A DNA stretch of 55,053 nucleotides from an uncultured Polyangiaceae bacterium (GCA_964585665.1 CAZPEY010000003.1:1203-56255); one strand, 5' to 3'; positions 13,828 to 42,359 are shown, numbered from the stretch's first letter. Numbers and translations: made by a program. Notes: generated from the letters alone by a model not told the origin.

Positions 13828-15597
13828 TCAGTCTGCGAGCTCGAGCCAGTCGAACCACACCGAGTAGTTGCGCTTGTACCAGGCCAGCACCTCGCGCAGA
13901 GCGTCGCGATTCTCCTGCGACATCAAGCTCTCCTCGATCCGATCGAAGTGCACCCGGATCCGCTCGCCATCGTAGGCGAGCGCCTGCGAGAACATCGTCT
14001 GTAGCTCGTTGCGAATGCGACCCGAGTCCGAGATCTTCACCGCGCGCTCATGCACGTCGACACCCGACAAGAAGCGTACGAGTAGCGGGCTGAACACCAG
14101 GCGCGCCTCGTCGAGCTCGTCGAGCAAGCGGAACGTGAAGGTGACGCGCGAGTTGGCGTTGCGGGTCGTCAGCCGCGTCACGACGCGGTAGTTGCCGTTG
14201 GCGAGCCGCTCGACCCCTCGCGCGCCGGTATACGGATCGTCACACATGTAGCCGGTGCACGCGAGCACGCCCCACCCCTTCTCGGGCAGCAGATCGTCGG
14301 CGCGCAGGACGCGGCGATCGAGCGGCACGTTGGATCGACGCGCCTCGCGCAGCGCCTCGGCATACAGGCTCACCCGCTCGTCGTCGAGCGGCTCGCCGCC
14401 GAACACGCCGCGCAGCGCCTCGACGAACGTCGGCGCCTCGGGATCGAGCTTCATCAAGCGATACTCGTCGTCGTGCGGGCGCTCGAACTTGGGCGAGAAC
14501 GGCGCCATCGTGCAGTCGACATCGAGGACCTCGGCCAGGCTGGCTGCCTGCATGGCCTCGGCGGACGCGGCGTACCCATCGCACACGAAGACGTGCTGCG
14601 CGCCCGCTTCGTCTCGCCAAGCACCGACGAGAAACGTCGGCGCGTAGGTCCCTGAGTCGGTGAACACCGGCAGCCCCGTCGGCGCGATCCAGCCGTCGTC
14701 GACGAGATGCGCACCGAGCGCCTCCCACTCCTGCCAGAGCCGCGACATTCGCTTGATGCGGCTCTTGCCCCGCAGCGTCCACACATGGATGTTGGCGCGC
14801 GCGATGCCGGGATAGGCGCGCTCGATCGCTTCGACGACCCGCGCGCGCGGCGTGCAGTAGTCGAGCAGCACCGCCTGCTCTTCGGCGGCCGCGACGACTC
14901 GACGCGGCACCGTGAGGCACCCCATGTAGGACTCGTAGGGTCGCGTCACCGAGAGCGGCGCATCGAACAGATGGAGCACCGTCATCGGCCCGGTCTCGCG
15001 CCCCTCTGCGAAGCGCGACGTGTTCTCGAGCGTGTCGACCGCCGCCCCCCAGACGGTGATGCCGCGCCGCCGCAGCTCTTCGTGAAAGTCCTCGAAGCAG
15101 CAGCGCTCGTCGTTGAGCAGACGATGCACCGCTGCGTCGACGATTCGCGCCACCTCGGGGCGCGCGTAGACACGGCCAAAGCCGAGCAGTGGATTGGCTC
15201 CCATCTCGGGCGTCTCGCCGGCCTTGGGCATCAACCCCTCGCCGAGCGACACCATCACCGCGTGATTCTCGGGGAGCTGGCGCGTCAGGTACCAGAGCCC
15301 CTCGCTCATCACGTAGGCCGACACCGCGTCGGCCGCCTTCTTCATCTGGTTGTAGCGATGCTTGTCGGCCCCCTTGCCCTCGCCGAAGTGGCCGAACAGC
15401 CGCGTCCCGAGCGCCGTCGCTGCGGCGGTCATCGCCAGGCAGCGCGTCAGGCCGCGCGGCACGAAGGCGTGGGCGGACACGGGATCCTCCTGGGCGCGCT
15501 CGACCTCGACGTCTTCGAGCCAAAGATGAAATCGCGTCAGCACCGGACGCGTATCGAACGCCCACTGCGCCACCAGATCACTTCGCTTCGCGGTCAT
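13828..15597 (-). CDS. Conserved hypothetical protein with distant GlpX-like (class II fructose-1,6-bisphosphatase fold) similarity
   Basis: A 589-aa ORF with normal composition. Several segments resemble GlpX blocks as I recall them: SLGEGLMPKAGE; VWTLRGKSRIKR...LGAHLVDDG; DGYAASAEAMQAASLAEVLDVD; ACTGYM...RVVTRLTTRNANSRVTF. The coding call is solid, but the fold assignment is tentative. Confidence 0.7.
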   Translation of the reverse strand: MTAKRSDLVAQWAFDTRPVLTRFHLWLEDVEVERAQEDPVSAHAFVPRGLTRCLAMTAAATALGTRLFGHFGEGKGADKHRYNQMKKAADAVSAYVMSEGLWYLTRQLPENHAVMVSLGEGLMPKAGETPEMGANPLLGFGRVYARPEVARIVDAAVHRLLNDERCCFEDFHEELRRRGITVWGAAVDTLENTSRFAEGRETGPMTVLHLFDAPLSVTRPYESYMGCLTVPRRVVAAAEEQAVLLDYCTPRARVVEAIERAYPGIARANIHVWTLRGKSRIKRMSRLWQEWEALGAHLVDDGWIAPTGLPVFTDSGTYAPTFLVGAWRDEAGAQHVFVCDGYAASAEAMQAASLAEVLDVDCTMAPFSPKFERPHDDEYRLMKLDPEAPTFVEALRGVFGGEPLDDERVSLYAEALREARRSNVPLDRRVLRADDLLPEKGWGVLACTGYMCDDPYTGARGVERLANGNYRVVTRLTTRNANSRVTFTFRLLDELDEARLVFSPLLVRFLSGVDVHERAVKISDSGRIRNELQTMFSQALAYDGERIRVHFDRIEESLMSQENRDALREVLAWYKRNYSVWFDWLELAD

Positions 15598-16191: not shown

Positions 16192-19100
16192 ATGCGTAGA
16201 ACACATCTATTGAGTAGTCTGCTCCTAACGATCGCTTTGGCGGGGGGTGGGTGCAAGGGACCGGCAGGCAAGCCTTGTACAGTCGCCAGCAATGGCGATG
16301 GCACCTCGACGATAAGCTGCCCTGACGGCACGAAGGTCACCGTCAAGGACGGCGCCAACGGCACCGACTGCAGCGTCAAGGACAACACCGACGGCTCGAA
16401 GACCGTCACGTGCACCGACGGCACGACGGTCACGGTGAACAACGGCACCAACGGGACCGATGGCACCAAGGGCACCGACGGCACCAACGGCACCAACGGC
16501 ACCAACGGCACCAACGGCACCAACGGCTCGAACGGCGCCGACGCCAACCTGCTCGTCACCAATTTCCACGGCGTGCAAGCGATCCTCGACGAGGAGCTCA
16601 AGAACGCCAACAAGAGCTACGTCAAGATCGTCGACATCTCCGCGACCGCCGGCGCCGACGGCATCGTCACGGTCAACTACACGGTCAAGGACAAGGACGA
16701 CAAACCGGTCCTCGGAATCGTCGGCACGACGACGAGCTACAACATCGTCAAGCTGATGCCACCGGGCGCGACCGAAACGACCACCTACTGGGTGCCCTAC
16801 ATCTGGCGCACCGAAGAGGTCAAGACCACGGGCTACCCCAACGACAAAGGCACGAAGACCGAGCAGGGCTATCGCGAGAACAACGGCAGCTTCAACGAGC
16901 TCGGCGACGGCAAGTATACGTACACGTTCAAGACCAACCTGTCGGCGGTCACGACCCCAGTGACCATGCAGCCGGTCTCCTTCGATCGCAATCGCAAGCA
17001 CCGCGTCTCGATCATGATCGGCGGACACAACGGACCGACGGGAACGGCGACGTTCGACTTCGTTCCGGACGGCTCGACCGACACGACCTCGCGCGACATC
17101 CTGTCGACATCCTCTTGCCAGACCTGCCACGGTCCCTTCTTCGCGGGTCACGGTGGCGATCGCATGACCGTCGAGAACTGCGCTACCTGCCACACCAAGG
17201 GCAGCTACGACGCACAGAGCGGCAACACGCTCGATCTGCCAGTGATGATCCACAAGATCCACGCGGGCGCCGAGCTGGCCAGCATTCCGGGAGACGACGG
17301 AGAGGTGTGGGACGACCCGGCCACCCTCGTCGATGAGTCGGCCGACAACGGGCACTACGTGATGTACGGCTACATGGATCGCAAGGTCGAGTGGTGGGAC
17401 GTCGGCTTCCCAGCGGTGCTCGAGAACTGCACCAAGTGCCACAACGGCTCGGGCGCCGATGTCGACAACTGGAAGAACAAGCTGTCGCGCGAGACCTGCG
17501 GCTCTTGCCACGACACGACGAGCTTCGACTTCCCGGCACCACAGGGCATGGTCATGCATGGCGGCGCGGCGGTCCCGAACGACGACACGATGTGCAAGAA
17601 CTGTCATCAGTCCGACAACAAGGGCCTCGGCCCGAGCATCGAGGCCGCGCACGACTGGACCACCAAAGATCCGCAGCACATCCCTGAGTTCGTCGCCGAG
17701 CTGTCGGTGACGCTGCCCGACGGCAAGGCCCCAGCCGGTGGCTTCTTCACCAAGGGTCAGCAACCGATGGTCACGATCAGGCTGCGCGACAACGAGCTCA
17801 ACGGCAAGCCGTACCTGCCGAACCACGAGCTCTACGCAGACGACGGGATCACCGCAGTCCCACCAGGTGACGGCCCCGAGGGTTGCACGCCGAACAACGA
17901 CAAGACGGCCTGCCTCGAGGATCGAGACGGCAAGCTCCCAGGCGCCAAGCTGTTCGTGCACGGCCCACGCGCCCGCCGCGTCCCGGTGCTGTCGACGCTG
18001 GCACGCGTCGTCATGAAGAGCACGGTCAACGGCACGTTCGCCTTCACCGACGCAACGTTCAAGGCCAACGTCAGCTTCAAGGTCGACGCGGGGCGCGATC
18101 TCTACGAGCAGGACGTGAGCGGCGGCGACGTCGTCTTCCCGGGCTCGTTCACGGTGCCGGCCTTCTCGGCGGGTGCGACGGGCCAGGTCGCCAGTTCGCC
18201 AGCGCCGAGCACGACCTCGTTCACCGACGCGAACCAGCAGCTCCTCGGCGTCAACCAGTCGTGGCGCGACCACCAGTACGCTGGCTGGACGATCGTCTTC
18301 ACCGACAACACCGATACTGCCAAGCCGACGGCGAGCGGCGTCATCGTCGACAACGTCGGCCCCACTGTGACGCTCAAGAGTGGTGTCTCGCTCGTCACGA
18401 CGGCCAACCACATCATCACGTACGCAATGTTTGCGCCGGCCGGGTCGTATAGCGGCCGTGCTTCTGCCGTGACCGCTACGACGCTGACCGACTCGACGGC
18501 CAAGTGGCGCAGCGGACAGTACCTCGGCTGGACGGTCGCCTTCATCGGTGGCACGGCCGACGGCAAGACGGCGACGATCACCGGCAACGATGGCACCGGC
18601 CTTACGTTCGACACGCTCGCCTTCGCGTTCGACGCCACGCAGCTCTACCAGATCCGCCCGTGGGTCGACACCGCCAAGGTCACGCCCAAAGAGGTCGTGC
18701 TCTGGCTCAACGCCAACGCCGGCTTCGCGGCGCGCGCGGTCGCGTACCTGGAGGACTCGTACATCTCTTCGACGCTCGCGGCGGCGATCACCACGACGCC
18801 GACCAACACCTTCACCGTCAAGACCGGCGAGGGCGCGATGTTCCCGGCGAGCGGCAGCGTGACCATCGATCGCGTGCTGTCCGGCGTTGGCACGCTCGCG
18901 ACGACCGCTGAGACGTTCGACTACACCCGCAGCGCGGACACCTTCACGCTGACGAGCGGCAGCACAGCGCTCGCGCACGCCAAGGGCGCCAACGTCGTCG
19001 TCCGCAATCCGAGCGGTGTCGTCGTGCGCAGCCGCAACCTCGGCAAGGTGTTCTCGATCCAGGGCGTCTCGACCGGCCTCACCGACGCGATCTTCCCCGC

Positions 19101-19923
19101 CGACAAGGTCTGGGGCTACCCGGTGCACGTCCTCGGCAGCAACGCGCCCGGCGCGTTCGACACCAAGGGAACGGCGTCGACGGTAGGCAACAACCTGGCG
19201 CGGCAGACCGACACCATCAAGGAGGACCCGAAGGTGACCTGGTCGAGCGACTCGATCCAGTACGTCCTCGATCCAGTCGACGATCTCGAGCCGGGCACGT
19301 ACATCGCCGACGTCGAGATCACCGACCGCGGCCTGCTCAGCAGCACCGCGAGCTACAAGACCCCGACCGTGGCCCGCATCACCTTCCAGGTCGGCACGGC
19401 CACGGAAGAGAAGGCCCCAGCGAACAACTGCGGCAAGTGCCACACCGATCCGACCGACACCAAGGGCTACGTGCTCGACTTCCAGCGGCACAACAAGCTC
19501 TTCAACAACACGGCGGTCGATCTGTGCGGCAACTGCCACGACTACCAGCCGCAAGCGGCGACGGGAACGGCTTGGTCGGGCGCGGTGTCGATCTCGCGGC
19601 GCGTGCACAGCGTGCACAACGGCGCGCATCTCAACTACCCGAACACGACCGTCGCGCACTCGGACGGCGAGGTCGGACGCAACTGGGGCATCGGCATGCC
19701 GCTCGACCTGCGAACCTGCGACCTCACCTGCCACCCGTCGACGGCGCCGCTCGGCACCACGGCGAGCAGCGGCTCGTGGAAGACCAAGGCCGCGCGCCTG
19801 CCGTGCGGTGGCTGCCACGACTCCGATGCAGCGCAGGCGCACTTCAAGGCGATGACCTGGGATCCGACGCCGAACGATCCGTACAGCGGCGACGAGGGCG
19901 AGTCCTGCCAGACCTGCCACTAG
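16192..19923 (+). CDS. Decaheme c-type cytochrome lipoprotein with an MtrC/OmcA-like 5+5 heme layout and an N-terminal collagen-like stalk
   Basis: Signal peptide with the lipobox-like LAGGGC (Cys at 16252). Nine CXXCH motifs and one CX3CH form two clusters of five. I trimmed the start from ORF 16018 to the ATG at 16192, which is preceded by a Shine-Dalgarno sequence. Confidence 0.9.
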   Translation: MRRTHLLSSLLLTIALAGGGCKGPAGKPCTVASNGDGTSTISCPDGTKVTVKDGANGTDCSVKDNTDGSKTVTCTDGTTVTVNNGTNGTDGTKGTDGTNGTNGTNGTNGTNGSNGADANLLVTNFHGVQAILDEELKNANKSYVKIVDISATAGADGIVTVNYTVKDKDDKPVLGIVGTTTSYNIVKLMPPGATETTTYWVPYIWRTEEVKTTGYPNDKGTKTEQGYRENNGSFNELGDGKYTYTFKTNLSAVTTPVTMQPVSFDRNRKHRVSIMIGGHNGPTGTATFDFVPDGSTDTTSRDILSTSSCQTCHGPFFAGHGGDRMTVENCATCHTKGSYDAQSGNTLDLPVMIHKIHAGAELASIPGDDGEVWDDPATLVDESADNGHYVMYGYMDRKVEWWDVGFPAVLENCTKCHNGSGADVDNWKNKLSRETCGSCHDTTSFDFPAPQGMVMHGGAAVPNDDTMCKNCHQSDNKGLGPSIEAAHDWTTKDPQHIPEFVAELSVTLPDGKAPAGGFFTKGQQPMVTIRLRDNELNGKPYLPNHELYADDGITAVPPGDGPEGCTPNNDKTACLEDRDGKLPGAKLFVHGPRARRVPVLSTLARVVMKSTVNGTFAFTDATFKANVSFKVDAGRDLYEQDVSGGDVVFPGSFTVPAFSAGATGQVASSPAPSTTSFTDANQQLLGVNQSWRDHQYAGWTIVFTDNTDTAKPTASGVIVDNVGPTVTLKSGVSLVTTANHIITYAMFAPAGSYSGRASAVTATTLTDSTAKWRSGQYLGWTVAFIGGTADGKTATITGNDGTGLTFDTLAFAFDATQLYQIRPWVDTAKVTPKEVVLWLNANAGFAARAVAYLEDSYISSTLAAAITTTPTNTFTVKTGEGAMFPASGSVTIDRVLSGVGTLATTAETFDYTRSADTFTLTSGSTALAHAKGANVVVRNPSGVVVRSRNLGKVFSIQGVSTGLTDAIFPADKVWGYPVHVLGSNAPGAFDTKGTASTVGNNLARQTDTIKEDPKVTWSSDSIQYVLDPVDDLEPGTYIADVEITDRGLLSSTASYKTPTVARITFQVGTATEEKAPANNCGKCHTDPTDTKGYVLDFQRHNKLFNNTAVDLCGNCHDYQPQAATGTAWSGAVSISRRVHSVHNGAHLNYPNTTVAHSDGEVGRNWGIGMPLDLRTCDLTCHPSTAPLGTTASSGSWKTKAARLPCGGCHDSDAAQAHFKAMTWDPTPNDPYSGDEGESCQTCH
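16444..16542 (+). repeat. Coding 9-bp tandem repeat encoding 11 Gly-X-Y triplets (GTN/GTD/GTK/GSN/GAD)
   Basis: Five perfect consecutive copies of GGCACCAAC span 16480-16524. Diverged copies flank them on both sides. Confidence 0.9.
17116..17607 (+). other. Heme-binding cluster 1 of the decaheme cytochrome (5 CXXCH)
   Basis: CQTCH 17116-17130, CATCH 17179-17193, CTKCH 17428-17442, CGSCH 17497-17511, CKNCH 17593-17607. Confidence 0.9.
19429..19920 (+). other. Heme-binding cluster 2 of the decaheme cytochrome (4 CXXCH plus 1 CX3CH)
   Basis: CGKCH 19429-19443, CGNCH 19525-19539, CDLTCH 19717-19734, CGGCH 19804-19818, CQTCH 19906-19920. The stop codon follows the last motif directly. Confidence 0.88.
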
Positions 19924-19969: not shown

Positions 19970-20884
19970 GTGTGCTCTCACCTCCACTTCATTCCGATCG
20001 CGGTCTGGCTCGTCTCGGCGGGCGCGCTCGGAGCCTGTAACGCGCCACCGTCGTCGCCTCCCCCTGCAGCCACGTCGAAGAGACCGCACCCGGAGACGCC
20101 GGGGGGCAGGGTGGTGGCGACGGTCAACGGCAAGAGCCTCACCGAGCTCGACTTGATGACCAAGCTCAAGACCGACAGCCACCAGGACGAGCTGCGCCCC
20201 GAGTATCGCAAGAACGTGCTCGAGCTCCTCGTTCGCGACGAGCTCGTCCATCAAGAGGTCGTGCGCCTCGGGCTCGACTCCGATCCTGCCTTCGCCGAGC
20301 CGGTGCGACGGATGGAGGCTCAGCTCGCGCAGCTCCGCCGCAACAAGGCGGCGGAGGTCTATTTCCGCGCCGAGATCATGGGCAAGGTCGAGGTGACCGA
20401 AGAGGACGCGCGGCGCTTTTTCGAGGAGCAGAAGGCGCGGCTCGGCACCGAGCTGCATCTGCTCCAGATCCTGCGGCGTTCGCGGGCGTCAATCGACGAA
20501 GCCAAGGCAGCGCTCGATGCTGGCAAGCGGTTCGAGGAGGTCGCGCAGCAGGACCTCGTCGGCGTGTCGCCCGAGCAGCGTGCGTGGGACCTCGGCTACC
20601 TGCGCTGGGCGCAGATCCCCGAGGCCTGGCAGCCCGTCGTCGAGAAGCTCAAGCCGGGTGAGACGAGCGGTGTCCTCGCCGGCCCCAAGGATCGCTTCTG
20701 GATCATCAAGCTCGTCGAGCGCCGTGCGACGACGCCGGACTTCGCCGTCGAGAAGGCTGGGCTCATCGCCACGCTCAAGGCGCGCCGCATCGAGGCGCTC
20801 CGGACGGAGCGAGAGCAGGCGCTGCGCAAGCAGGCGACCATCGTCATCCCCGAGGTCAGTGCACCTCCCGCACCCGCAAACTAG
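19970..20884 (+). CDS. Peptidyl-prolyl cis-trans isomerase lipoprotein (SurA/PrsA-like N-terminal region plus a PpiC/parvulin domain)
   Basis: GTG start and lipobox ALGAC. The chaperone-like N-terminal part contains VATVNGKSLTELDL. The parvulin-like block is LHLLQILRRSRASIDEAKAALDAGKRFEEVAQ...WDLGYLRWAQIPEAWQPVVEKLKPGETSGVL. Confidence 0.78.
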   Translation: MCSHLHFIPIAVWLVSAGALGACNAPPSSPPPAATSKRPHPETPGGRVVATVNGKSLTELDLMTKLKTDSHQDELRPEYRKNVLELLVRDELVHQEVVRLGLDSDPAFAEPVRRMEAQLAQLRRNKAAEVYFRAEIMGKVEVTEEDARRFFEEQKARLGTELHLLQILRRSRASIDEAKAALDAGKRFEEVAQQDLVGVSPEQRAWDLGYLRWAQIPEAWQPVVEKLKPGETSGVLAGPKDRFWIIKLVERRATTPDFAVEKAGLIATLKARRIEALRTEREQALRKQATIVIPEVSAPPAPAN

Positions 20885-20925: not shown

Positions 20926-22260
20926 ATGAAGGCCATGCCTCGTCATCCTCGTCGCGGTAGGCTCGTTCACTTCAAGCATCCTCACGACGAGCGGCCGATC
21001 GTCGTCGGTGCGTGCCACATGGATCCCGAGGACGGCGACTACGAGCACTACGGGGCGCACCACGACTCGGCGCTCCGCGTGCCGAACTTCGTCGACCTGC
21101 GCGCTCACATGACGCCGATCGAGGATCAGGGCGACATCGGCAGCTGCACGGCCAACGCGCTGGCTGGCGCGCTCGAGTACCTGCAGAAGCGAACGCGCGG
21201 CGACTTCGTCGACGTTTCGCGCTTGTTCATCTACTACAACGAGCGCGACCTCAACGGCGAGACCCACGAGGACTGTGGCGCCAACCTCGACCTCGGCATC
21301 CAGACCCTCAAGGCCGAGGGCGCTTGCGCCGAGGATCTGTGGCCCTACGACATCAAGAAGGTGCTGCGCAAGCCGCGGGAAGAGGCCTACGCCGCGGCGA
21401 CGAACCACACGATCGACGAGGCGCGGCGCGTGCCGATCGAGCTCGATGCGATGCGCCACTGCCTCGCCGAGGGCTACCCGATCATCTTCGGTCTACAGGT
21501 CTACGACTCCTTCCAGGAGGACGGACAAAAGAACCGGGGCCGAATTCGCATGCCTCACCCCAAGCGCAACGAGCACGCCGGCGGACACGCCATGCTCGTC
21601 GTCGGCTACTCCGACGAGGACGAGGTCTTCGTCGTGCGCAACTCGTGGGGACCCAAGTGGGGCGACAAGGGCTACTGCTACATCCCGTACGCGTACATGT
21701 CCGACGGAGACTACGCGCACGACCTGTGGACGATCCGCCGCGCTCACAATCTCGACTTCACCAAGGGGATCGGCGGCACGCCGAACGCGCGCGGCGAGAG
21801 CCAGACGACGTTCTTCCCGAACATCACCTCGCTCATCATGTCGATCGGCTCGGCCCTCGCCGGCGGCAAGCAACCCGAGGAGGTCATGGAAGCTGCACAG
21901 ACCGAGGGGTTGAGGGAGGAGTCCATCGCCACCGACGAGGAGGAGGGCGATCAGGAGACGGCCAAGCTTGAGGCGGACATCGAGCGGCTCAACCGCGAGA
22001 TCGCCGAGACGGAGGCTGAGCTGGCGCGGCTCGAGGCCGAGGGCGACGGGGAGGAGTCGGACGAAGACGAGTCAGACGACGAGTCGGACGACGACGAGTC
22101 GGACGAAGAGTCGGACGAAGACGAGTCAGACGACGAGTCGGACGACGACGAGTCGGACGAAGAGTCGGACGACGACGAGTCGGACGAAGAGTCGGACGAC
22201 GAGGACGAAGACGACGACGAGGACGAGGACGACGAGGACGACGAGGACGAAGACGACTAG
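20926..22260 (+). CDS. Papain-like (C1 family) cysteine peptidase with a coiled-coil segment and a poly-acidic Glu/Asp/Ser C-terminal tail
   Basis: Catalytic-site blocks are QGDIGSCTANA (Cys), HAGGHAMLVVGY (His) and VVRNSWGPKWGDKGY (Asn). No signal peptide is evident. The last roughly 69 residues consist only of E, D and S. Confidence 0.85.
   Translation: MKAMPRHPRRGRLVHFKHPHDERPIVVGACHMDPEDGDYEHYGAHHDSALRVPNFVDLRAHMTPIEDQGDIGSCTANALAGALEYLQKRTRGDFVDVSRLFIYYNERDLNGETHEDCGANLDLGIQTLKAEGACAEDLWPYDIKKVLRKPREEAYAAATNHTIDEARRVPIELDAMRHCLAEGYPIIFGLQVYDSFQEDGQKNRGRIRMPHPKRNEHAGGHAMLVVGYSDEDEVFVVRNSWGPKWGDKGYCYIPYAYMSDGDYAHDLWTIRRAHNLDFTKGIGGTPNARGESQTTFFPNITSLIMSIGSALAGGKQPEEVMEAAQTEGLREESIATDEEEGDQETAKLEADIERLNREIAETEAELARLEAEGDGEESDEDESDDESDDDESDEESDEDESDDESDDDESDEESDDDESDEESDDEDEDDDEDEDDEDDEDEDD
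22057..22191 (+). repeat. Perfect 54-bp coding tandem repeat, 2.5 copies, inside the acidic tail
   Basis: 22057-22110 and 22111-22164 are identical (tcggacgaagacgagtcagacgacgagtcggacgacgacgagtcggacgaagag). 22165-22191 repeats the second half of the unit. Confidence 0.95.
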
Positions 22261-23158: not shown

Positions 23159-23188
23159 ATTGTCACAGCAAGCAACTATCTTCTACCA

Positions 23189-24490
23189 GTGCTACCACGC
23201 CACGCTCCTTCGCTTGGGCTCTGCACAGCGCTCGCTGTGGTGCTCTTCCATGTCCCCCGCGCTGACGCGCAGCCTTGTCCCGCGTCGCCCCCGAGCTGCG
23301 ACGACGCCTCCGCGATCGCGAATCCCGTGTACGTCCTCGCTGCCGACACGCAGGTCCCGGTGCTGCACAGACTCGGAAAGCGACTGCGCAGCGACGCGAA
23401 CCCGATGACGGTCGTCTACGTGCCGAACGGCTCGTGCACGAACCTCGCAAGCCTCTACGCGCAGCCACCCAGGCTCGCCGTCGGTGTCGGCGGCGGGCCG
23501 TACTACGTCCCGGCCGACCCTGCATTCGACCCGGCCTCCAAGACAGCGTGCGCCTGCACACCGCCAGCGACGGAGCTGCAGCCAGATCTCGCGATCACGA
23601 TCGTCGTGCCCGATGCCAAGAGTTGCCCGAGTGCTCCGGCCAAGCCGCCGGGGATCGCGACGACGCGCGGGCCGGTCCAGGCGATGACGTTCGTCGTGCC
23701 GTTCGACACCGCCACCAGCGTCGGCTCGTCGCAGCGCGCGATCACCGCCGAAGAGGCGTACCTCGTGTTCGGCCTCGGTCCGACCAAGGCGATGGTCGCG
23801 CCCTGGCTCGATCCGACCTACCTCTATGGGCGCCCGGCCTCGAAGGGGACGCAGATCAGCATCGGTGAGAACATCGGCGTCCCAGCCGCCAAGTGGAAGC
23901 TGCTCGCCGACCCCGAGCACCAGATCGATCAATCCTCCGCGCTGGCCGCGCAGCTCGGCTCGCTGGCAACCGATCCGAACGCCGAGAAGGCGCTCGGCAT
24001 CCTGGGCACCGAGATCTACGACAAGGCCGCCAACCGCGCCAAGCTGCACGCCCTCGCCTTCCGCGCCTTCGGGCAGAAGCGTGCGTACTGGCCGGATCGA
24101 GCCCCGACGACCTTCGACAAGCAGAACGTGCGAGACGGCCACTACCCGCTGTGGTCGTACGTACACTACCTGGCTCCCAGCGACGGCAGCGGCAAGGCGC
24201 TCAAGGCTTCGGCGCAGACCCTCATCGATGCGCTCATCGGCAGCAGCGCGACCTTCAGCCCCGCCTTCGAGCCGCTCGACGACGTGATCGCGAGCGGGCT
24301 CGTACCGATCTGTGCAATGAAGGTGCAGCGCTCGACCGAGGGCGGCGAGCTGTCGCCGTACGAGGACACGGCGCCCTGCGGTTGCTACTTCGAGGCCAAG
24401 GTCTCTGGCGCATCGACCTGCACGCCGTGCAGCGTGAGCAGCCCGTGCACGACTGGCGTCTGCCGCCACGGCTACTGCGAGGTGAGGTGA
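23189..24490 (+). CDS. Secreted PstS/PBP_like_2-type substrate-binding protein with a Cys-rich C-terminal tail
   Basis: The GTG start gives the signal peptide MLPRHAPSLGLCTALAVVLFHVPRADA. PBP-like blocks are VVYVPNGSCTNLASL, GRPASKGTQISIGENIG and DGHYPLWSYVHYLAP. The tail is APCGCYFEAKVSGASTCTPCSVSSPCTTGVCRHGYCEV. The upstream part of ORF 22559.. is antisense to the regulator gene. Confidence 0.65.
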   Translation: MLPRHAPSLGLCTALAVVLFHVPRADAQPCPASPPSCDDASAIANPVYVLAADTQVPVLHRLGKRLRSDANPMTVVYVPNGSCTNLASLYAQPPRLAVGVGGGPYYVPADPAFDPASKTACACTPPATELQPDLAITIVVPDAKSCPSAPAKPPGIATTRGPVQAMTFVVPFDTATSVGSSQRAITAEEAYLVFGLGPTKAMVAPWLDPTYLYGRPASKGTQISIGENIGVPAAKWKLLADPEHQIDQSSALAAQLGSLATDPNAEKALGILGTEIYDKAANRAKLHALAFRAFGQKRAYWPDRAPTTFDKQNVRDGHYPLWSYVHYLAPSDGSGKALKASAQTLIDALIGSSATFSPAFEPLDDVIASGLVPICAMKVQRSTEGGELSPYEDTAPCGCYFEAKVSGASTCTPCSVSSPCTTGVCRHGYCEVR

Positions 24491-37082: not shown

Positions 37083-37095
37083 TTGAAGGCGGCGC

Positions 37096-37734
37096 ATGAG
37101 CGACACCGAGCGTCCCGCCAAGCATCGCTGCCCCAACAGCGCGATTACTCGACGCAAGTTCTGCGCTGCCGCCGCCGTCGGCTCCGGCCTGGTCGTGCTC
37201 GCGGCCAACGGCTGCGAGTCACCCAACCCGCGGCTCTCGCTCGGCAACAACGTCGGTGACGATGAGCCGCTGCCGGATCCGAGCGTCGACGGCGGCAGCG
37301 AGGACTCGACCGACCTGGCGCAGTCCTCGTCGTCCAAGGACATGAAGAAGTCGAGCGACCTGTCCAAGCCTGCCGACCTCACCCAGCAGCCCGTCAACAA
37401 CTGCTCGGGCCTCGTCGAGTGCGGCGTCGCCGCCGACATCACCGATGGCAGCGCCAAGCGCTACACCGACAACTACAACTACGACTTCTTCGTCTGCCGC
37501 GACGCCGCTGGCCTCTACGCGCTGTCGTCGCTGTGCACGCACGACTACCGCCCGGTCAAGAAGCAGACGTCGCGCTTCTACTGCCCCTATCACGGCGCGA
37601 CCTTCGATCTCAACGGACAGAAGCCAACCAAGCCCGCGTACAAGGCGCTCGAGCACTACGCCGTGTGCGTCGACGCCAGCGGCAACGTGCAGGTCGACTA
37701 CAACACCGTCGTCGATCCGTCGACGCGCGCCTGA
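37096..37734 (+). CDS. Tat-exported Rieske [2Fe-2S] domain lipoprotein
   Basis: Twin-arginine signal ITRRKFCAAAAVG with lipobox-like LAANGC. A Ser/Asp-rich linker follows. The Rieske motif is CTHDYRP...FYCPYHGATF (CxH...CxxH). Confidence 0.85.
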   Translation: MSDTERPAKHRCPNSAITRRKFCAAAAVGSGLVVLAANGCESPNPRLSLGNNVGDDEPLPDPSVDGGSEDSTDLAQSSSSKDMKKSSDLSKPADLTQQPVNNCSGLVECGVAADITDGSAKRYTDNYNYDFFVCRDAAGLYALSSLCTHDYRPVKKQTSRFYCPYHGATFDLNGQKPTKPAYKALEHYAVCVDASGNVQVDYNTVVDPSTRA

Positions 37735-37763
37735 AGTTCTTGCGATCCCGAGGAGGAAGTCCG

Positions 37764-38264
37764 ATGCGTCCCCTGCTCGCTCCGCTCGCTGCTGCGCTCA
37801 CGCTCCTCTGCTCGACCTACGCTCCGGCCGAGGTCAAGCCGGGCTCGCGACCGCTCGACTTCCAAGGCAAGACCACCCAAGGCGAGCCGTTCCGCCTCGC
37901 GCAGCTCCGCGGCAAGGTCGTGCTGATCGACTTCTGGGCCTCGTGGTGCGAGCCCTGCAAGAAGGAGCTGCCGTTGCTGCACAAGATGGCGCAGCGGCTC
38001 CGCGGCCAGGGGATCGAGATCGTCACTATCAACATCGACGACGATCCCGCCAACGCACAGGCCTTCATGCGGCAGAAGCGGCTCGAAGGTCTGACCGTCG
38101 TCGCCGACACGGACAAGCACATCGTCGACAAGTTCGAGCCACCGAAGATGCCGTCGTCGTTCCTGCTCGACAAGAACGGCGTCGTGCGTGCCGTCAACGC
38201 CGGCTTCGACGAGGGCGATGAGGCCAAGCTCGAGCAGCAGCTCAAGGGCCTGGCCGACAAGTAG
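37764..38264 (+). CDS. TlpA-family periplasmic thiol:disulfide oxidoreductase (thioredoxin fold)
   Basis: AGGAGG precedes the ATG at 37764. Signal peptide present. The block GKVVLIDFWASWCEPCKKELP contains the CXXC active site. Confidence 0.9.
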   Translation: MRPLLAPLAAALTLLCSTYAPAEVKPGSRPLDFQGKTTQGEPFRLAQLRGKVVLIDFWASWCEPCKKELPLLHKMAQRLRGQGIEIVTINIDDDPANAQAFMRQKRLEGLTVVADTDKHIVDKFEPPKMPSSFLLDKNGVVRAVNAGFDEGDEAKLEQQLKGLADK

Positions 38265-38269
38265 CCCGC

Positions 38270-38836
38270 ATGCGCCTCGCCTCCCTCCCGATGCTCCTCG
38301 CCCTCAGCCTCGGCGCCTGCCAGTCCGTCGAGCCGGACACCGGCCTCGATCAGACCGCCATCGAGGAGTCGTTCGACTACAACCGCTTCGTCTGCGAGGC
38401 GCAGCCGGTCCTGATCCGACGCTGCTCGTTCCTCGCCTGCCACGGCGACGCCACCCACGCCTTTCGCGTCTACTCGGCGGGCAAGCTCCGCTTGACCCCG
38501 CCGACCAATCGCGACGAGCGCGACGCGCCGCTCACCGCCGACGAAGTCGAGCGCAACTATCTGTCGGCGGCGGGCGTCCTCCTCGGCGCGACCGTCACCG
38601 ATCGCGAGTCGCTCGCGCTCGAGCGCTTGCCGCTGCTGCGCAAGCCGCTCGCCGCGCGCTGGGGCGGCGATGAGCACGCCGGCGTCGCGATCTTCCCGGT
38701 GCCCCCGATCGAGTCGCCCTCCGACGATCCCGAGTGGTCCGCGCTGGTGGCGTGGACCGCTGGCTCACCGCTGCCCAAGCCACTGGCCACCGACTGCACC
38801 GACCTCTTCGACACCCTGGGACTTCAACCCCGATGA
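38270..38836 (+). CDS. Lipoprotein with a CX4CH motif (PSCyt-like segment)
   Basis: Lipobox LSLGAC. FVCEAQPVLIRRCSFLACHGD resembles a planctomycete-type cytochrome c N-terminal segment, but with four residues between Cys and Cys-His. Confidence 0.62.
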   Translation: MRLASLPMLLALSLGACQSVEPDTGLDQTAIEESFDYNRFVCEAQPVLIRRCSFLACHGDATHAFRVYSAGKLRLTPPTNRDERDAPLTADEVERNYLSAAGVLLGATVTDRESLALERLPLLRKPLAARWGGDEHAGVAIFPVPPIESPSDDPEWSALVAWTAGSPLPKPLATDCTDLFDTLGLQPR

Positions 38837-39060
38837 GACTGCTCCGCATGTTGCTCGCCGGCCTGGCGCTCGCGCTGTACTTGATCGCGCTCGAGGGCTG
38901 TGTGCCGGTCAAGCCCTACCAGCGCGAGATCTTGGCGCTGCCCACCATGACCTTCGGGCCCGATCCGCACGAGGATCTGCTCGACCTCCACATGCACGAG
39001 GCACGCGAAGGATCCGTCGGCGGCTACGGCTCGGCTGGCGGGGGCTGCGGCTGCAACTGA
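38833..39060 (+). CDS. DUF4266 family small lipoprotein
   Basis: The ATG overlaps the upstream stop (ATGA). Lipobox LIALEGC. The family-typical C-terminus is SAGGGCGCN. The upstream part of ORF 38734.. was trimmed. Confidence 0.8.
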   Translation: MRLLRMLLAGLALALYLIALEGCVPVKPYQREILALPTMTFGPDPHEDLLDLHMHEAREGSVGGYGSAGGGCGCN

Positions 39061-39062
39061 CG

Positions 39063-40142
39063 ATGCGCGCCCTCCTCTTCTGCGCCGTCGGCGCGCTCGT
39101 CCTTGTCGCGACGCCTCGCTCGGGGCGCGCTGACAACACGTTCGACGCCAAGACGCAGGTCTACGCCGACAGCGATCATACGGTGGTCGTCTCGCCGCTG
39201 GTCGCGATCAGCCGCGACGCCTGGCGCGGCGGCACGCTCTCGGCGAGCTACGTCGCAGACGTCGTCTCCTCCGCGTCGATCGACGTGGTGTCGAACGCCA
39301 CCAAGAAGATGGAGGACTTCCGCTCCGAGATCTCCGGCTCGATCTCGCAGAAGGTGCGCGGCACGACACTGTCGGCGAGCTACGTCTACTCGATCGAGCA
39401 CGACTACTCGTCGCACAACGCCAGCTTCGGCCTGTCGCAGGATCTGTTCCAGAAGAACACCACGCTCGCCCTCGGCGCGAGCTTCTCCTACAACGCCGTC
39501 GGGCGCGCCGGCGACCAGTCGTTCCATCGCTCGCTGTGGACCGCCGGTGCGAGCGCCTCGTGGACCCAGACGATCACGCGCAAGACGATCGCGCAGCTCA
39601 GCTACACCTTCTCGTACAACAACGGCTATCAGGCGAGCCCGTACCGCTGGGTGCGCATCTACAACAGCGACGCCAGCGACGTGCTCTACAAGGTCCCCGA
39701 GATCACGCCGGGCCTGCGCTATCGCCACGCGTTCGTCCTCGGCCTCAACCGCTTCCTCGGCAAGGGCACGTCGCTGCAGGGCGACTACCGCATCTACTTC
39801 GATGACTGGGGGCTCCTGTCGCACACGCTGCAGGCGCGCCTGTTCATCACGATCAAGGATCTGACCATCCGGCTGCGAGAGCGCTTCTACTACCAGCGCG
39901 GCGTCAACTTCTACCAGCCGTACTACCAGCAAGTGCAGCCGTACATGACCGCGGACCGTGAGCTGACGACGTTCGCGTCCAACCTCCTCGGGCTCAAGCT
40001 GATCTGGAAGCTGCCCTTCCTCGAGCGCGCGCTCGCCGCCGAGATCAAGGGTGACTTCCTCTACTTCCACTACAACGAGTTCCCGCTGCTCAACCGTCGC
40101 TACGGTGGCACCGCGGAGCTCGGGCTGAGCCTGGTGTACTGA
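39063..40142 (+). CDS. DUF3570 family outer-membrane beta-barrel protein
   Basis: Signal peptide MRALLFCAVGALVLVATPRSGRA. The sequence is Tyr/Ser-rich with alternating strands and ends in an aromatic residue (LSLVY). Sitting directly downstream of DUF4266 is the usual context for this family. Confidence 0.78.
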   Translation: MRALLFCAVGALVLVATPRSGRADNTFDAKTQVYADSDHTVVVSPLVAISRDAWRGGTLSASYVADVVSSASIDVVSNATKKMEDFRSEISGSISQKVRGTTLSASYVYSIEHDYSSHNASFGLSQDLFQKNTTLALGASFSYNAVGRAGDQSFHRSLWTAGASASWTQTITRKTIAQLSYTFSYNNGYQASPYRWVRIYNSDASDVLYKVPEITPGLRYRHAFVLGLNRFLGKGTSLQGDYRIYFDDWGLLSHTLQARLFITIKDLTIRLRERFYYQRGVNFYQPYYQQVQPYMTADRELTTFASNLLGLKLIWKLPFLERALAAEIKGDFLYFHYNEFPLLNRRYGGTAELGLSLVY

Positions 40143-41485
40143 TGGCACGCTGGCCCATCCACGCTCGCCCCTGGCTCGTCGCGACGCTCCTGCTCGGTCT
40201 GGTGGCGCACGCGCCGATCGCCCACGCCAAAGACGTCAGCCGCATCGTCTTCCTCGGCGTTGGCGGCACGGGTGGCGCGCCGTTCGCCGAGCTGCTCCTC
40301 CAGGATCTCTCCGACGCGTACACCGTCCTGTCGGGCGAGACCTATCGAAAGACGGCGCAGAAGCTCGGCCGCATGAGCGCCAACGAGGACGACGTACGCG
40401 CCGTCTGCGGCACGATCGGCGCCGATGCACTCGTCGCCGGCACGGTGCGCAGCGAGCCGGGCGGTCGCATCTTCCAGCTGTCGATCCGCGACGGCGTCAC
40501 GGGGCGCATCGTGCAGCGCATCCGCTACCCGCTGGTCGGGACGACGCTGCCGCAGATTCGCGACAAGGTCGTGTTCGATCTGGTGCGGCAGCTGTCGCGG
40601 CTGGATCAGCCCATCGGGCAACCCGGCGGTGACGATGAGAAGCCGCTCAAGTCGACCGCGCCGCCCGCCAACCAGCCCGACGCCGGCCAGGGCGGCGACG
40701 CCAGCGAGGGCGACGACGCGCCGCTCGTCACCCCTGCGACGACCAAGAAGGCGCCGTCGATCGATCGCACCTTCCGCGGCCTGCAGTTCGGCGTCGGCCC
40801 GTCGCTGACCACGCGCTCGCTGCGCTTCGACAACCTCGCCGCGCCCGGCTACTTCGGCGGCACCGTCTACGGGATCAAGGCGTACGTCGCGGTGTTTCCG
40901 ATCGCGCTGTCGGCAGAGCTCGCCAATGCTCACCCGGTGCTCTCGTCCTTCGGCGTCGAGGCCGAGTACGAGCGCGTCTTCCGCTTCACCTCGGACAACG
41001 GCCTGGTCGCCACCGACGGCAACGCCTCGCGCTGGATGGTGCGCTTCGTCGGCCGCATCCCGCTCGGCAGGGCGGCGCGCGGCGGCCATCTGTCGCTGCA
41101 GAGCGGCTACCAGCACCTGAGCTGGCACTCGAGCTCTCCGGCCGATCTGCGCGTCCCCAACGTCGACTACCGCCTCTTCGACGCCGGTCTCGCCTGGGAC
41201 AAGACGCTCGGCACGCGCTACGTCGTCCTGTCGCTGCGCCTCGGGGGCCTCGCCATGCTGTCGGGCGGCGGGATCACCTCGATCGAGGAGTACGGCTCGG
41301 CGCGCGGCGGGGGCCTCGACGCCTCGGCGAAGCTCGAGCTCAAGCCCAAGGACTGGCTGTCGCTGCGGCTCGGCGCGCAGTACACCGGCCTCTTCTTGCA
41401 GTTCGATGCGACGGGCGCGCGCTTCGCTCGCTCGGCCAAGGATCAGTTCGTCGCTGGCACGCTGGAGATTGGCTTTGCACTCTAA
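40142..41485 (+). CDS. Secreted protein with an N-terminal TolB-N/LpoB-like domain, a Pro/Asp-rich linker and a C-terminal predicted beta-barrel
   Basis: The ATG overlaps the upstream stop (TGATG). Signal peptide ...APIAHA. The C-terminal half has alternating strand patterns and ends in EIGFAL. Confidence 0.68.
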   Translation: MARWPIHARPWLVATLLLGLVAHAPIAHAKDVSRIVFLGVGGTGGAPFAELLLQDLSDAYTVLSGETYRKTAQKLGRMSANEDDVRAVCGTIGADALVAGTVRSEPGGRIFQLSIRDGVTGRIVQRIRYPLVGTTLPQIRDKVVFDLVRQLSRLDQPIGQPGGDDEKPLKSTAPPANQPDAGQGGDASEGDDAPLVTPATTKKAPSIDRTFRGLQFGVGPSLTTRSLRFDNLAAPGYFGGTVYGIKAYVAVFPIALSAELANAHPVLSSFGVEAEYERVFRFTSDNGLVATDGNASRWMVRFVGRIPLGRAARGGHLSLQSGYQHLSWHSSSPADLRVPNVDYRLFDAGLAWDKTLGTRYVVLSLRLGGLAMLSGGGITSIEEYGSARGGGLDASAKLELKPKDWLSLRLGAQYTGLFLQFDATGARFARSAKDQFVAGTLEIGFAL

Positions 41486-42359
41486 CCGTTCTCTCGTCGC
41501 GCTGCTGCTCGGGGCGCTCGTCACGGCGCCGGCGGCGGCGCACGCCTTCGAAGACTCGGGCCAGTTTCTCGCCGGCTCGCTCCCCCACGCTGCGACGCTC
41601 ACGTCGTCGTCCGAGGGCGTCTACTTCACCGGCGCGCCGCGCTTCGCCGGGCTCGACTGCAGCGCCTGCCACACCGAAGGACGCAAGGACATCGCGCTTC
41701 ACCTCGACGCCGACGACGGTTCCCTCTTCACCCGCGGCTACCAGCCCGGCCAGGTCTACGAGCTGGTGGTGCGCTTGCGGCGCGAGAGCGCCGGGCTCGA
41801 CTATTCGTCCCCGACCTGCACCGAGGTCTCGGCAGGCGACGCGTTCGTCCCGTGCAACAACAACAACTTCGCGCTCGAGATCGATCAGGAGCTCGGGCCG
41901 CTCGCCGGCCCGGGCGTCTTCTGCTCTCGCCCACCCGTCGACGGCAACTGCCCCTCCGCCGACGAGACGACCGACGAGGTGCTGATCGCCCCCGACGGCG
42001 ACGCGGTGTTCGGCAACCGCACGCACGACCCGGGGGACGACCGCATCGTCACCCGCAACGGCGCGACCTCGTGGCGGCTGTGGTGGACCGCTCCCCCCGA
42101 GGGTACGGGCCCGCTCAAGATCTTCATCGGCGCGGTCGACGGGAACGGCGGCGGCGGCACCGTCGACGACAACCAGGATCCGACGGGCGACGACACGGTG
42201 CGCGGCGTGATCGCGATCGGCGAAGCAGGCGCACCGCTCGACCTCAGCGCGGCGGCCGGCTGCCAGGTCGACGCCTCGCCCCAGCCCCCACCACCGTCGC
42301 TGCTCCTCGGCTTCGCCGCCCTCGTCCTGGCGCGGCGGCGGCGCCTCACTCGAAGGTGA
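41475..42359 (+). CDS. Monoheme (single CXXCH) secreted protein with a MYXO-CTERM-like sorting tail
   Basis: TTG at 41475 follows GGAG (41464-41467) and gives the signal peptide MHSNRSLVALLLGALVTAPAAAHA. ATG at 41406 is an alternative that would overlap the previous gene by 80 nt. The heme motif is LDCSACHTEG. Confidence 0.68.
   Translation: MHSNRSLVALLLGALVTAPAAAHAFEDSGQFLAGSLPHAATLTSSSEGVYFTGAPRFAGLDCSACHTEGRKDIALHLDADDGSLFTRGYQPGQVYELVVRLRRESAGLDYSSPTCTEVSAGDAFVPCNNNNFALEIDQELGPLAGPGVFCSRPPVDGNCPSADETTDEVLIAPDGDAVFGNRTHDPGDDRIVTRNGATSWRLWWTAPPEGTGPLKIFIGAVDGNGGGGTVDDNQDPTGDDTVRGVIAIGEAGAPLDLSAAAGCQVDASPQPPPPSLLLGFAALVLARRRRLTRR
42258..42356 (+). other. MYXO-CTERM-like C-terminal sorting signal
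   Basis: GCQVDASPQPPPPSLLLGFAALVLARRRRLTRR: Gly-Cys, a spacer, a hydrophobic helix and an Arg cluster. Confidence 0.7.

Follow-up and report, generated by a model that had tools for sequence, protein, structure and literature searches.

Cytochromes of the MtrC/OmcA family are used by Shewanella and other bacteria to pass electrons to extracellular minerals. Here we describe a gene of this family in a 55,053-nt stretch of DNA (hereafter, the window) from an uncultured Polyangiaceae bacterium (GCA_964585665.1, CAZPEY010000003.1:1203-56255). The encoded protein has in common with the Shewanella proteins MtrC, OmcA, MtrF, and the undecaheme UndA (structures 4lmh, 4lm8, 6qyc, 3pmq, and 3ucp) a lipoprotein signal, the four-domain order, ten heme motifs, a CX8C pair in domain III, a score above the family cut-off, and the fold. 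It differs from them in a ~100-residue N-terminal extension made of Cys-pair repeats and G-X-Y triplets, in a domain III of ~595 residues with inserted tail-fibre-like modules, in a CX3CH motif at heme 8, and in a chain that ends exactly at the heme-10 His; moreover, mtrAB is not adjacent, and a conserved gene for a peptidyl-prolyl isomerase (PPIase) lies downstream. We consider it fairly probable that the protein is a lipid-anchored OmcA/MtrC decaheme working as an outer-surface terminal electron-transfer cytochrome, its localisation, donor, acceptor, and oligomeric state being what we infer.

The open reading frame (ORF) begins with an ATG at 16192, preceded by GGAGG 7 nt upstream, and has a G+C content at third codon positions (GC3) of 0.88, a value usual for real genes of this window (68-70% G+C). 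A longer, TTG-started ORF from 16018 was discarded as the start: its 58 extra residues do not include a signal peptide, and the relatives align from ATG 16192. The translation contains nine CXXCH motifs (nt 17116, 17179, 17428, 17497, 17593, 19429, 19525, 19804, and 19906), and the tenth heme motif is CDLTCH (CX3CH; nt 19717, aa 1176-1181), corresponding to heme 8. The motifs form two groups of five, at aa 309-472 and aa 1080-1243, and the protein terminates on the His of heme 10. All these positions, the terminal His included, are exactly those of an earlier reading made from the sequence alone (the sequence-only reading); the heme-free middle, put there at ~600 residues, counts 607 (residues 473-1079). 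When the window was scanned in six frames, its ORFs of 100 aa or more contained only one other CXXCH, at 41658; thus, the cluster of ten motifs is not a product of chance.

Family models and fold point in the same direction. TIGR03507, the curated whole-protein model of OmcA/MtrC, matched with 267.8 bits against a cut-off of 209.3 (E 2e-79), and PF22113, which describes domain II/IV of MtrC/MtrF, matched in two stretches (5e-31, 108 bits against a cut-off of 30); on domain II, residues 301-476 cover profile positions 1-167 of 176. Among solved structures, the sequence matched OmcA (4lmh, 3e-25) and UndA (3ucp, 1e-15). The AlphaFold2 model of residues 118-1243, built on a 92-sequence alignment, had a mean predicted local distance difference test score (pLDDT) of 86.3 and a predicted template modelling score (pTM) of 0.84. 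When it was compared with the Protein Data Bank (PDB) by Foldseek, the top 16 matches were all OmcA, MtrC, UndA, or MtrF (E 6e-25 to 7e-8), with 465-636 aligned columns to full-length structures, at an identity of only ~20%. Domain I has weak PF22112/PF22111 matches and is all-beta, with pLDDT >90 in the model. The 5+5 decaheme of OmcA/MtrC type with beta/heme/beta/heme order, as proposed in the sequence-only reading, is therefore what TIGR03507, PF22113, AlphaFold2, and Foldseek agree upon. Since the curated threshold is passed and the fold matches, the family assignment holds: on sequence and model, the predicted protein is a ten-heme MtrC/OmcA-fold cytochrome with a lipoprotein signal. The coordinates of its parts are collected in Table 1.

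The columns of all ten heme motifs are invariant in 14 sequences and nearly invariant in 92. In addition, at least 12 His outside the motifs are conserved (126, 270, 320, 354, 357, 456, 487, 545, 1100, 1139, 1142, and 1217), which would be sufficient in number for bis-His ligation of ten hemes. The CX8C pair of domain III reads C565-TPNNDKTA-C574, and a Cys pair occurs at this site in 96 of the 105 sequences bearing the anchor motif, with a spacing of 4-16. In Shewanella MtrC, the CX8C motif is a disulfide that controls flavin reduction and guards against reactive oxygen (PMC9973256, PMC4486940); by analogy, Cys565-x8-Cys574 is probably a redox-switch disulfide too.

Table 1. Coordinates of the cytochrome gene, its predicted parts, the PPIase gene, and one locus of relatives (window positions unless a locus is named)
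Feature	Position	Strand	Description	Basis
Decaheme cytochrome ORF	16192..19923	+	1243 aa	translation, family models, fold match
Signal peptide and lipobox	16192..16254	+	LAGGGC, aa 16-21; Cys21	aligned to relatives' canonical lipoboxes
Two Cys-pair repeats	16276..16443	+	C29-x13-C43 and C60-x13-C74; CTVxxNxDGTxTIxCxDGTxVTV	collagen-flanked surface repeat type
Collagen-like run	16444..16542	+	11 uninterrupted G-X-Y triplets (GTN/GTD/GTK), aa 85-117	translation; PF01391 weak
Domain I, N-terminal beta domain	16567..17091	+	~aa 126-300	TIGR03507 stretch 155-477; OmcA alignment 145-442
Domain II, pentaheme	17092..17631	+	~aa 301-480; hemes 1-5 CQTCH/CATCH/CTKCH/CGSCH/CKNCH	PF22113 and motifs
Domain III, enlarged beta domain	17632..19416	+	~aa 481-1075; starts with Cys565-x8-Cys574	alignment and model
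Insertion A, two tandem ~80-aa beta modules	18172..18690	+	~aa 661-833; W-x3-Q-Y-x-G-W-T ... D-A-T-x-x-Y	alignment, repeat pair
Insertion B, further beta module	18754..19026	+	~aa 855-945; F-x-V-x-x-G-x-G-x-x-F-P...E-T-x-x-Y-T-R...A-H	alignment; beta strands in models
Domain IV, pentaheme	19417..19920	+	aa 1076-1243; hemes 6-10 CGKCH/CGNCH/CDLTCH/CGGCH/CQTCH	second stretch of PF22113/TIGR03507
PPIase gene, parvulin type (PpiC/PrsA/EpsD-like)	19970..20884	+	own lipobox LGAC	PF13145 Rotamase_2 4.5e-10; weak EpsD/PrsA matches
mtrA-mtrB-family member-PPIase row	L037 2277-9603			

The protein search yielded 569 relatives, the best at 63% identity. At the genome level, an alignment-based scan with one genome per species found that at least 264 species-level genomes encode relatives; a scan with peptides of the single protein had returned none. 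The best 80 of these genome relatives are mostly from Myxococcota, largely metagenome-assembled genomes (MAGs), of the families Polyangiaceae, Archangiaceae, Anaeromyxobacteraceae, Sandaracinaceae, Kofleriaceae, and Myxococcaceae; they also include the cultured Anaeromyxobacter sp. PSR-1 and a few Planctomycetota, Gammaproteobacteria, and Acidobacteria. Relatives are typically of 850-1000 aa, show 40-63% identity to this protein, and are already carried in public records as OmcA/MtrC family decahemes. The relatives of the myxobacterial clade, PSR-1 among them, share with the protein described here the lipobox, a CFSR and/or collagen-like run, the decaheme body, the terminal CXXCH, and the downstream PPIase gene, whereas the expanded interval between hemes 5 and 6, the rare Lys at position +2, and the CX3CH at heme 8 set it apart. 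Indeed, CXXCH terminates nearly all of the 120 best relatives. At heme 8, CX3CH is found in this protein, P0001, and P0004-P0008, whereas P0002, P0003, and the bulk of the clade have CXXCH; P0001 carries a second CX3CH, at heme 5. Evidently, as these alignments suggest, the family tolerates one-residue insertions inside heme motifs.

This distribution bears on two statements of the sequence-only reading. A putative myxobacterial origin fits both the taxonomy of the relatives and the other genes of the window, which include Ser/Thr kinases with TPR, a sigma-54 activator with FHA, a TonB-dependent receptor, Lgt, and a C1 peptidase, among others. The qualification of such a protein as unexpected biology is not supported: hundreds of database proteins have the same architecture, together with the stalk, and so do the at least 264 genomes, mostly of Myxococcota, the clade is already auto-annotated, and the genus Anaeromyxobacter is a known metal reducer. 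Anaeromyxobacter includes known Fe(III) reducers (PMC4245776), and surveys mention MtrC-type genes of Anaeromyxobacter and of Myxococcota MAGs (PMC3669403; bioRxiv 10.1101/2022.03.26.485925). The mtrCAB survey PMC8805035 makes no mention of Myxococcota, Deltaproteobacteria, or Anaeromyxobacter. In our literature searches, no paper turned up on the stalk, on the PPIase partner, or on the insert of these cytochromes, nor any on collagen-like multiheme cytochromes. The "mtrC" of a Bradymonabacteria paper is an efflux gene and was set aside as irrelevant.

The N-terminal lipoprotein signal is MRRTHLLSSLLLTIALAGGGC, which agrees with the general lipobox pattern, and the mature N-terminus begins with C-K-G-P-A-G. 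At the aligned site, the lipoboxes of relatives are canonical (LAAC, LTAC, AVGC). Residue +2 of the lipidated Cys is Lys here versus S, E, A, G, or T in most relatives. The lipobox-like LAGGGC and the DGT-rich module with four Cys reported in the sequence-only reading are both in place, the latter with Cys29, 43, 60, and 74; of the spacing given there as 13/15/13, the outer values are right, and the middle one is actually 16 intervening residues (Cys43 to Cys60). The two repeats score below family cut-offs, both for PF19079 CFSR (18.4 bits against 27, E 0.0026) and for TIGR04203 (24.9 bits against 60, E 1.6e-5); their pattern is identical in kind to that of relatives with precomputed PF19079 matches. 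The 11 uninterrupted Gly-X-Y triplets, likewise noticed before, are present. At the DNA level, they correspond to a 9-bp tandem repeat, CAACGGCAC (window 16440-16536, 10.8 copies, 87% matches). Replication slippage at this repeat could alter the stalk length between strains, and relatives range from 0 to ~36 triplets.

Scl1 and Scl2 of Streptococcus and BclA of Bacillus are bacterial collagen-like surface proteins. Together with CFSR proteins (PF19079), they share with the N-terminus described here a G-X-Y run beside a globular domain, a predicted surface anchor, and a flank of Cys-pair repeats; in contrast, there are 11 triplets only in this case, without Pro and below Pfam cut-offs, and the globular partner is a multiheme cytochrome. 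G-X-Y runs are present in most of the 120 best relatives, where they reach 30 triplets and are in some cases Pro-rich (up to ~36 triplets in the genome loci of relatives), and ~30 of these 120 have a precomputed PF01391 match. Many relatives carry the Cys-pair repeat, in one to four copies. Considering complete, non-redundant loci, the N-terminal collagen-like/Cys-repeat stalk is encoded in 64 out of 66. Because the stalk is found in these loci and in most of the best relatives, the predicted collagen-like tether is a hallmark of the clade and not a peculiarity of this gene.

The most divergent part of the protein is domain III. MtrC has a domain III several-fold shorter than the one described here. 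Coherently with the sequence-only reading, which had described the inter-cluster domain as much longer than in MtrC, the distance between heme 5 and heme 6 is 612 aa, versus 320-345 aa in most relatives; relatives P0001-P0008 alone are similarly expanded, with 500-850 residues. The surplus amounts to ~290 residues here and to 170-520 across this protein and P0001-P0008. It consists of two insertions and a short loop. Insertion A is restricted to this protein and P0001-P0008, and insertion B is missing from P0007 and P0008 and multiplied in P0006. The internal duplication that had been pointed out in this region is real: WRDHQYAGWTIVF (18262-18300) and WRSGQYLGWTVAF (18505-18543) belong to two ~80-aa segments with 32% identity (pairwise E 3e-7).

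No Pfam model matched the domain III insert, even at E up to 10, and the search against PHROGs gave a chance-level match only. Modelled separately, residues 648-950 are all-beta with a pLDDT of 85.2. The PDB matches of this model are weak (the phage depolymerase 7vul, E 7e-4), and predicted viral structures gave matches of ~90 residues to tail-fibre/tailspike proteins, at 23-35% identity and 3.4-4.2 Angstrom root mean square deviation; overall, the structural matches of the insert are weak, with template modelling scores (TM) of 0.2-0.5. In an exhaustive HMMER search, the second module turned up in ~100 other protein clusters, where it is often repeated several times; the carriers include an RHS-repeat protein, a phage BR0599-like protein, and a beta-helix/pectate-lyase-like protein. 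Since the module recurs in phage-tail and other surface proteins, the insert consists, to judge from its sequence, of small, acquired modules of surface proteins. Its most likely contribution is a surface for binding a solid or polymeric partner, a plausible role that we infer. As a side observation, the module W-x3-Q-[WY]-x-G-[WFY]-T ... D-x-T-S-x-Y occurs in P0123-P0224, often in 2-7 copies and mostly without Pfam coverage, and the ~80-aa module has the look of a repeat family, not yet curated, that phage-tail and bacterial surface proteins share.

The PPIase gene starts 46 nt past the cytochrome stop. No terminator-like site was found between the two genes, in a promoter/terminator scan that was itself uninformative, and the genes are probably co-transcribed. 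Of the 66 non-redundant complete loci of relatives, 49 (about three quarters) have a PPIase homolog immediately downstream and on the same strand, as do all five loci fetched by protein identity. Cytochrome and PPIase form a conserved two-gene unit. The PPIase gene accompanies 49 of the 64 stalked loci and neither of the two stalk-less ones, which are too few to conclude that stalk and PPIase are tied.

Neither MtrA, MtrB, type II secretion, nor any other multiheme gene was found in the window by tblastn, Pfam, and CXXCH scan. The sequence-only reading had noted that no MtrA-like decaheme or MtrB-like porin is adjacent; the statement can thus be extended to all 55 kb. Relatives are similar in this regard, as mtrAB is linked in only two of their 79 loci and about three quarters have no other multiheme gene within 6 kb. 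Both exceptions (L037 and L038, from Gammaproteobacteria MAGs) show the order mtrA (10 hemes), mtrB (PF11854, 3.7e-182), family member with G-X-Y runs, and PPIase gene. On account of this order, the clade can presumably act as the outer part of a true Mtr conduit; the same two loci suggest that it has crossed phyla together with the PPIase. An unlinked outer cytochrome has precedent: the porin-cytochrome (Pcc) clusters of Anaeromyxobacter comprise a porin and a periplasmic multiheme protein and no outer cytochrome gene (PMC4245776), and mtrC of Desulfobacterota is often unlinked from mtrAB (PMC12133095). Pcc proteins are phylogenetically unrelated to Mtr proteins (PMC4245776). The Pcc systems of Geobacter and Anaeromyxobacter are possible electron donors for the protein described here, a pairing that would involve genes outside the window.

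Two loci of relatives contain further redox genes. Upstream of the closest relative (63% identity; L001 1-9700) there are genes for a transposase, a NapC/NirT-like protein, a Rieske protein, a cytochrome b, a 9-heme protein, two small c-type cytochromes, and a second MtrC-like protein; together, they are a candidate for a full electron path, which the window does not have. In L004 (3614-7570, minus strand), genes for a 412-aa protein without Pfam match and for 13-heme and 11-heme proteins are divergent from the relative's gene, an arrangement resembling the Pcc clusters of Geobacter.

Putting these elements together, the protein would be exported by Sec, lipidated at Cys21, and provided with its hemes in the periplasm; the adjacent PPIase lipoprotein would then aid its folding, and the cytochrome would be brought to the outside of the outer membrane. 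There, the pentaheme domains II and IV, packed on the beta domains I and III, would form a ten-heme electron wire, receiving electrons from a conduit of MtrAB or Pcc type encoded elsewhere in the genome and handing these on to acceptors outside the cell, for example Fe(III)/Mn(IV) oxides, humics, or flavins. The Cys-pair repeats and the 33-residue G-X-Y run would serve as a spacer that keeps the cytochrome body away from the lipid anchor and lifts it through the surface polysaccharide layer. The run would measure ~9 nm if it were a triple helix, and it might trimerise. It is possible to go further, although we regard this as quite unlikely, and to imagine three decaheme bodies on a ~10 nm trimeric stalk, with tail-fibre-like modules docking to mineral, polysaccharide, or cell: a contact-dependent "electron plug" of myxobacteria, matured by the PPIase as in collagen folding and working without linked MtrAB.

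Several observations weigh against an outer-surface electron-transfer role. The Lys at position +2 is found in only three of the 93 family members with a recognisable lipobox, this protein included, and in Myxococcus xanthus, 8 out of 12 inner-membrane lipoproteins have it (PMC3222651). The collagen-like run is short and Pro-free, and its PF01391 score is 20.3 bits against a cut-off of 27.2 (E 4.7e-4). The window has no porin-cytochrome, type II secretion, or other multiheme gene. Lastly, no experimentally characterised member of this Myxococcota-centred clade was found in the searched literature.

A first alternative is that the protein faces the periplasm, as an electron carrier or store with no contact with extracellular substrates. 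The +2 Lys would then be read as the mark of an inner-membrane lipoprotein, coherently with a window without secretion system or porin-cytochrome genes and with the Rieske/cytochrome b, NapC-like, and other multiheme genes near the closest relative's gene. However, the same M. xanthus work reports that the matrix lipoprotein FibA is exported despite its +2 Lys (PMC3222651), and most relatives do not have this residue. Moreover, the characterised members of the fold (MtrC, OmcA, MtrF, and UndA) are all outer-membrane or extracellular (PMC9973256, PMC4486940), collagen-like runs and "surface repeats" are traits of exposed proteins, and a relative is encoded with mtrAB. We thus regard a periplasmic location as unlikely.

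A second alternative keeps the protein at the surface and changes its direction or role: it would draw in electrons supplied by Fe(II), by Mn(II), by reduced humics, or by a partner cell, or it would protect a mainly aerobic organism by reducing H2O2, iodate, or flavins. Polyangiaceae and Sorangium are generally regarded as aerobes, and many relatives come from taxa held to be so. Furthermore, wires of Mtr type are possibly bidirectional, MtrA homologs, PioA among them, are required for Fe(II) oxidation (PMC3669403), MtrCAB is reported to reduce H2O2 during iodate reduction (PMC9732548), and the conserved CX8C pair ties MtrC to the control of oxygen and reactive oxygen species (PMC9973256). 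Nothing in the sequence, however, indicates the direction of the electrons; the known Fe(II)-oxidising clusters of Mtr type have no outer MtrC (PMC4245776), and Anaeromyxobacter, the cultured genus with a relative, is a metal reducer. A reversed or protective role appears rather unlikely on these grounds.

Finally, it is very unlikely that the protein serves chiefly for adhesion or contact, binding prey, polysaccharide, or mineral by its stalk and tail-fibre-like modules and using its hemes secondarily (for redox damage to prey or sensing): the insert modules are indeed common to phage tail fibres, tailspikes, and an RHS-repeat protein, and the N-terminus is weakly similar to collagen-like adhesins (NF038329, E 7e-4), but the structural matches of the insert are weak, and the heme sites and distal His are conserved across 92 relatives while the insert is in about nine sequences only, which makes electron transfer the conserved function.

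Other genes of the window deserve a brief mention. Just past the PPIase gene, a papain-family (C1) cysteine peptidase gene (20926-22260, plus strand) encodes a product ending in a ~75-residue tail, nearly all of it Asp, Glu, and Ser. The cytochrome region is flanked by two large ORFs (13828-15597, minus strand, and 23162-24490, plus strand) with a strong coding signal (GC3 of 0.82-0.88) and without Pfam/NCBIfam match. Further downstream, the run at 37087-42359 (plus strand) comprises genes for a Rieske protein and a DUF3570 protein, a 476-aa ORF without assignment, and a choice-of-anchor V ORF, which contains the CXXCH at 41658; it may be a separate envelope redox unit.

The family assignment in itself is not new, and standard annotation would name the gene correctly. 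What we describe is a distinct, undescribed variant architecture, defined by the tether, the PPIase partner, the independence from mtrAB, and, in one subclade, the tail-fibre-like modules of domain III. Extracellular electron transfer of MtrC type is understood almost only from Shewanella, and this clade is large, uncharacterised, and centred on Myxococcota. It presents a different build of the outer component, with a repeat/collagen-like tether in place of a short linker, a domain III tolerant of insertions, a presumably dedicated PPIase partner, and, in most cases, porin-cytochrome genes that are not linked to it. Should these proteins work at the cell surface, the reduction (or oxidation) of Fe, Mn, and humics by soil and sediment myxobacteria may be commoner than assumed, and the tether and insertions would be natural examples of how a heme wire can be extended or functionalised.

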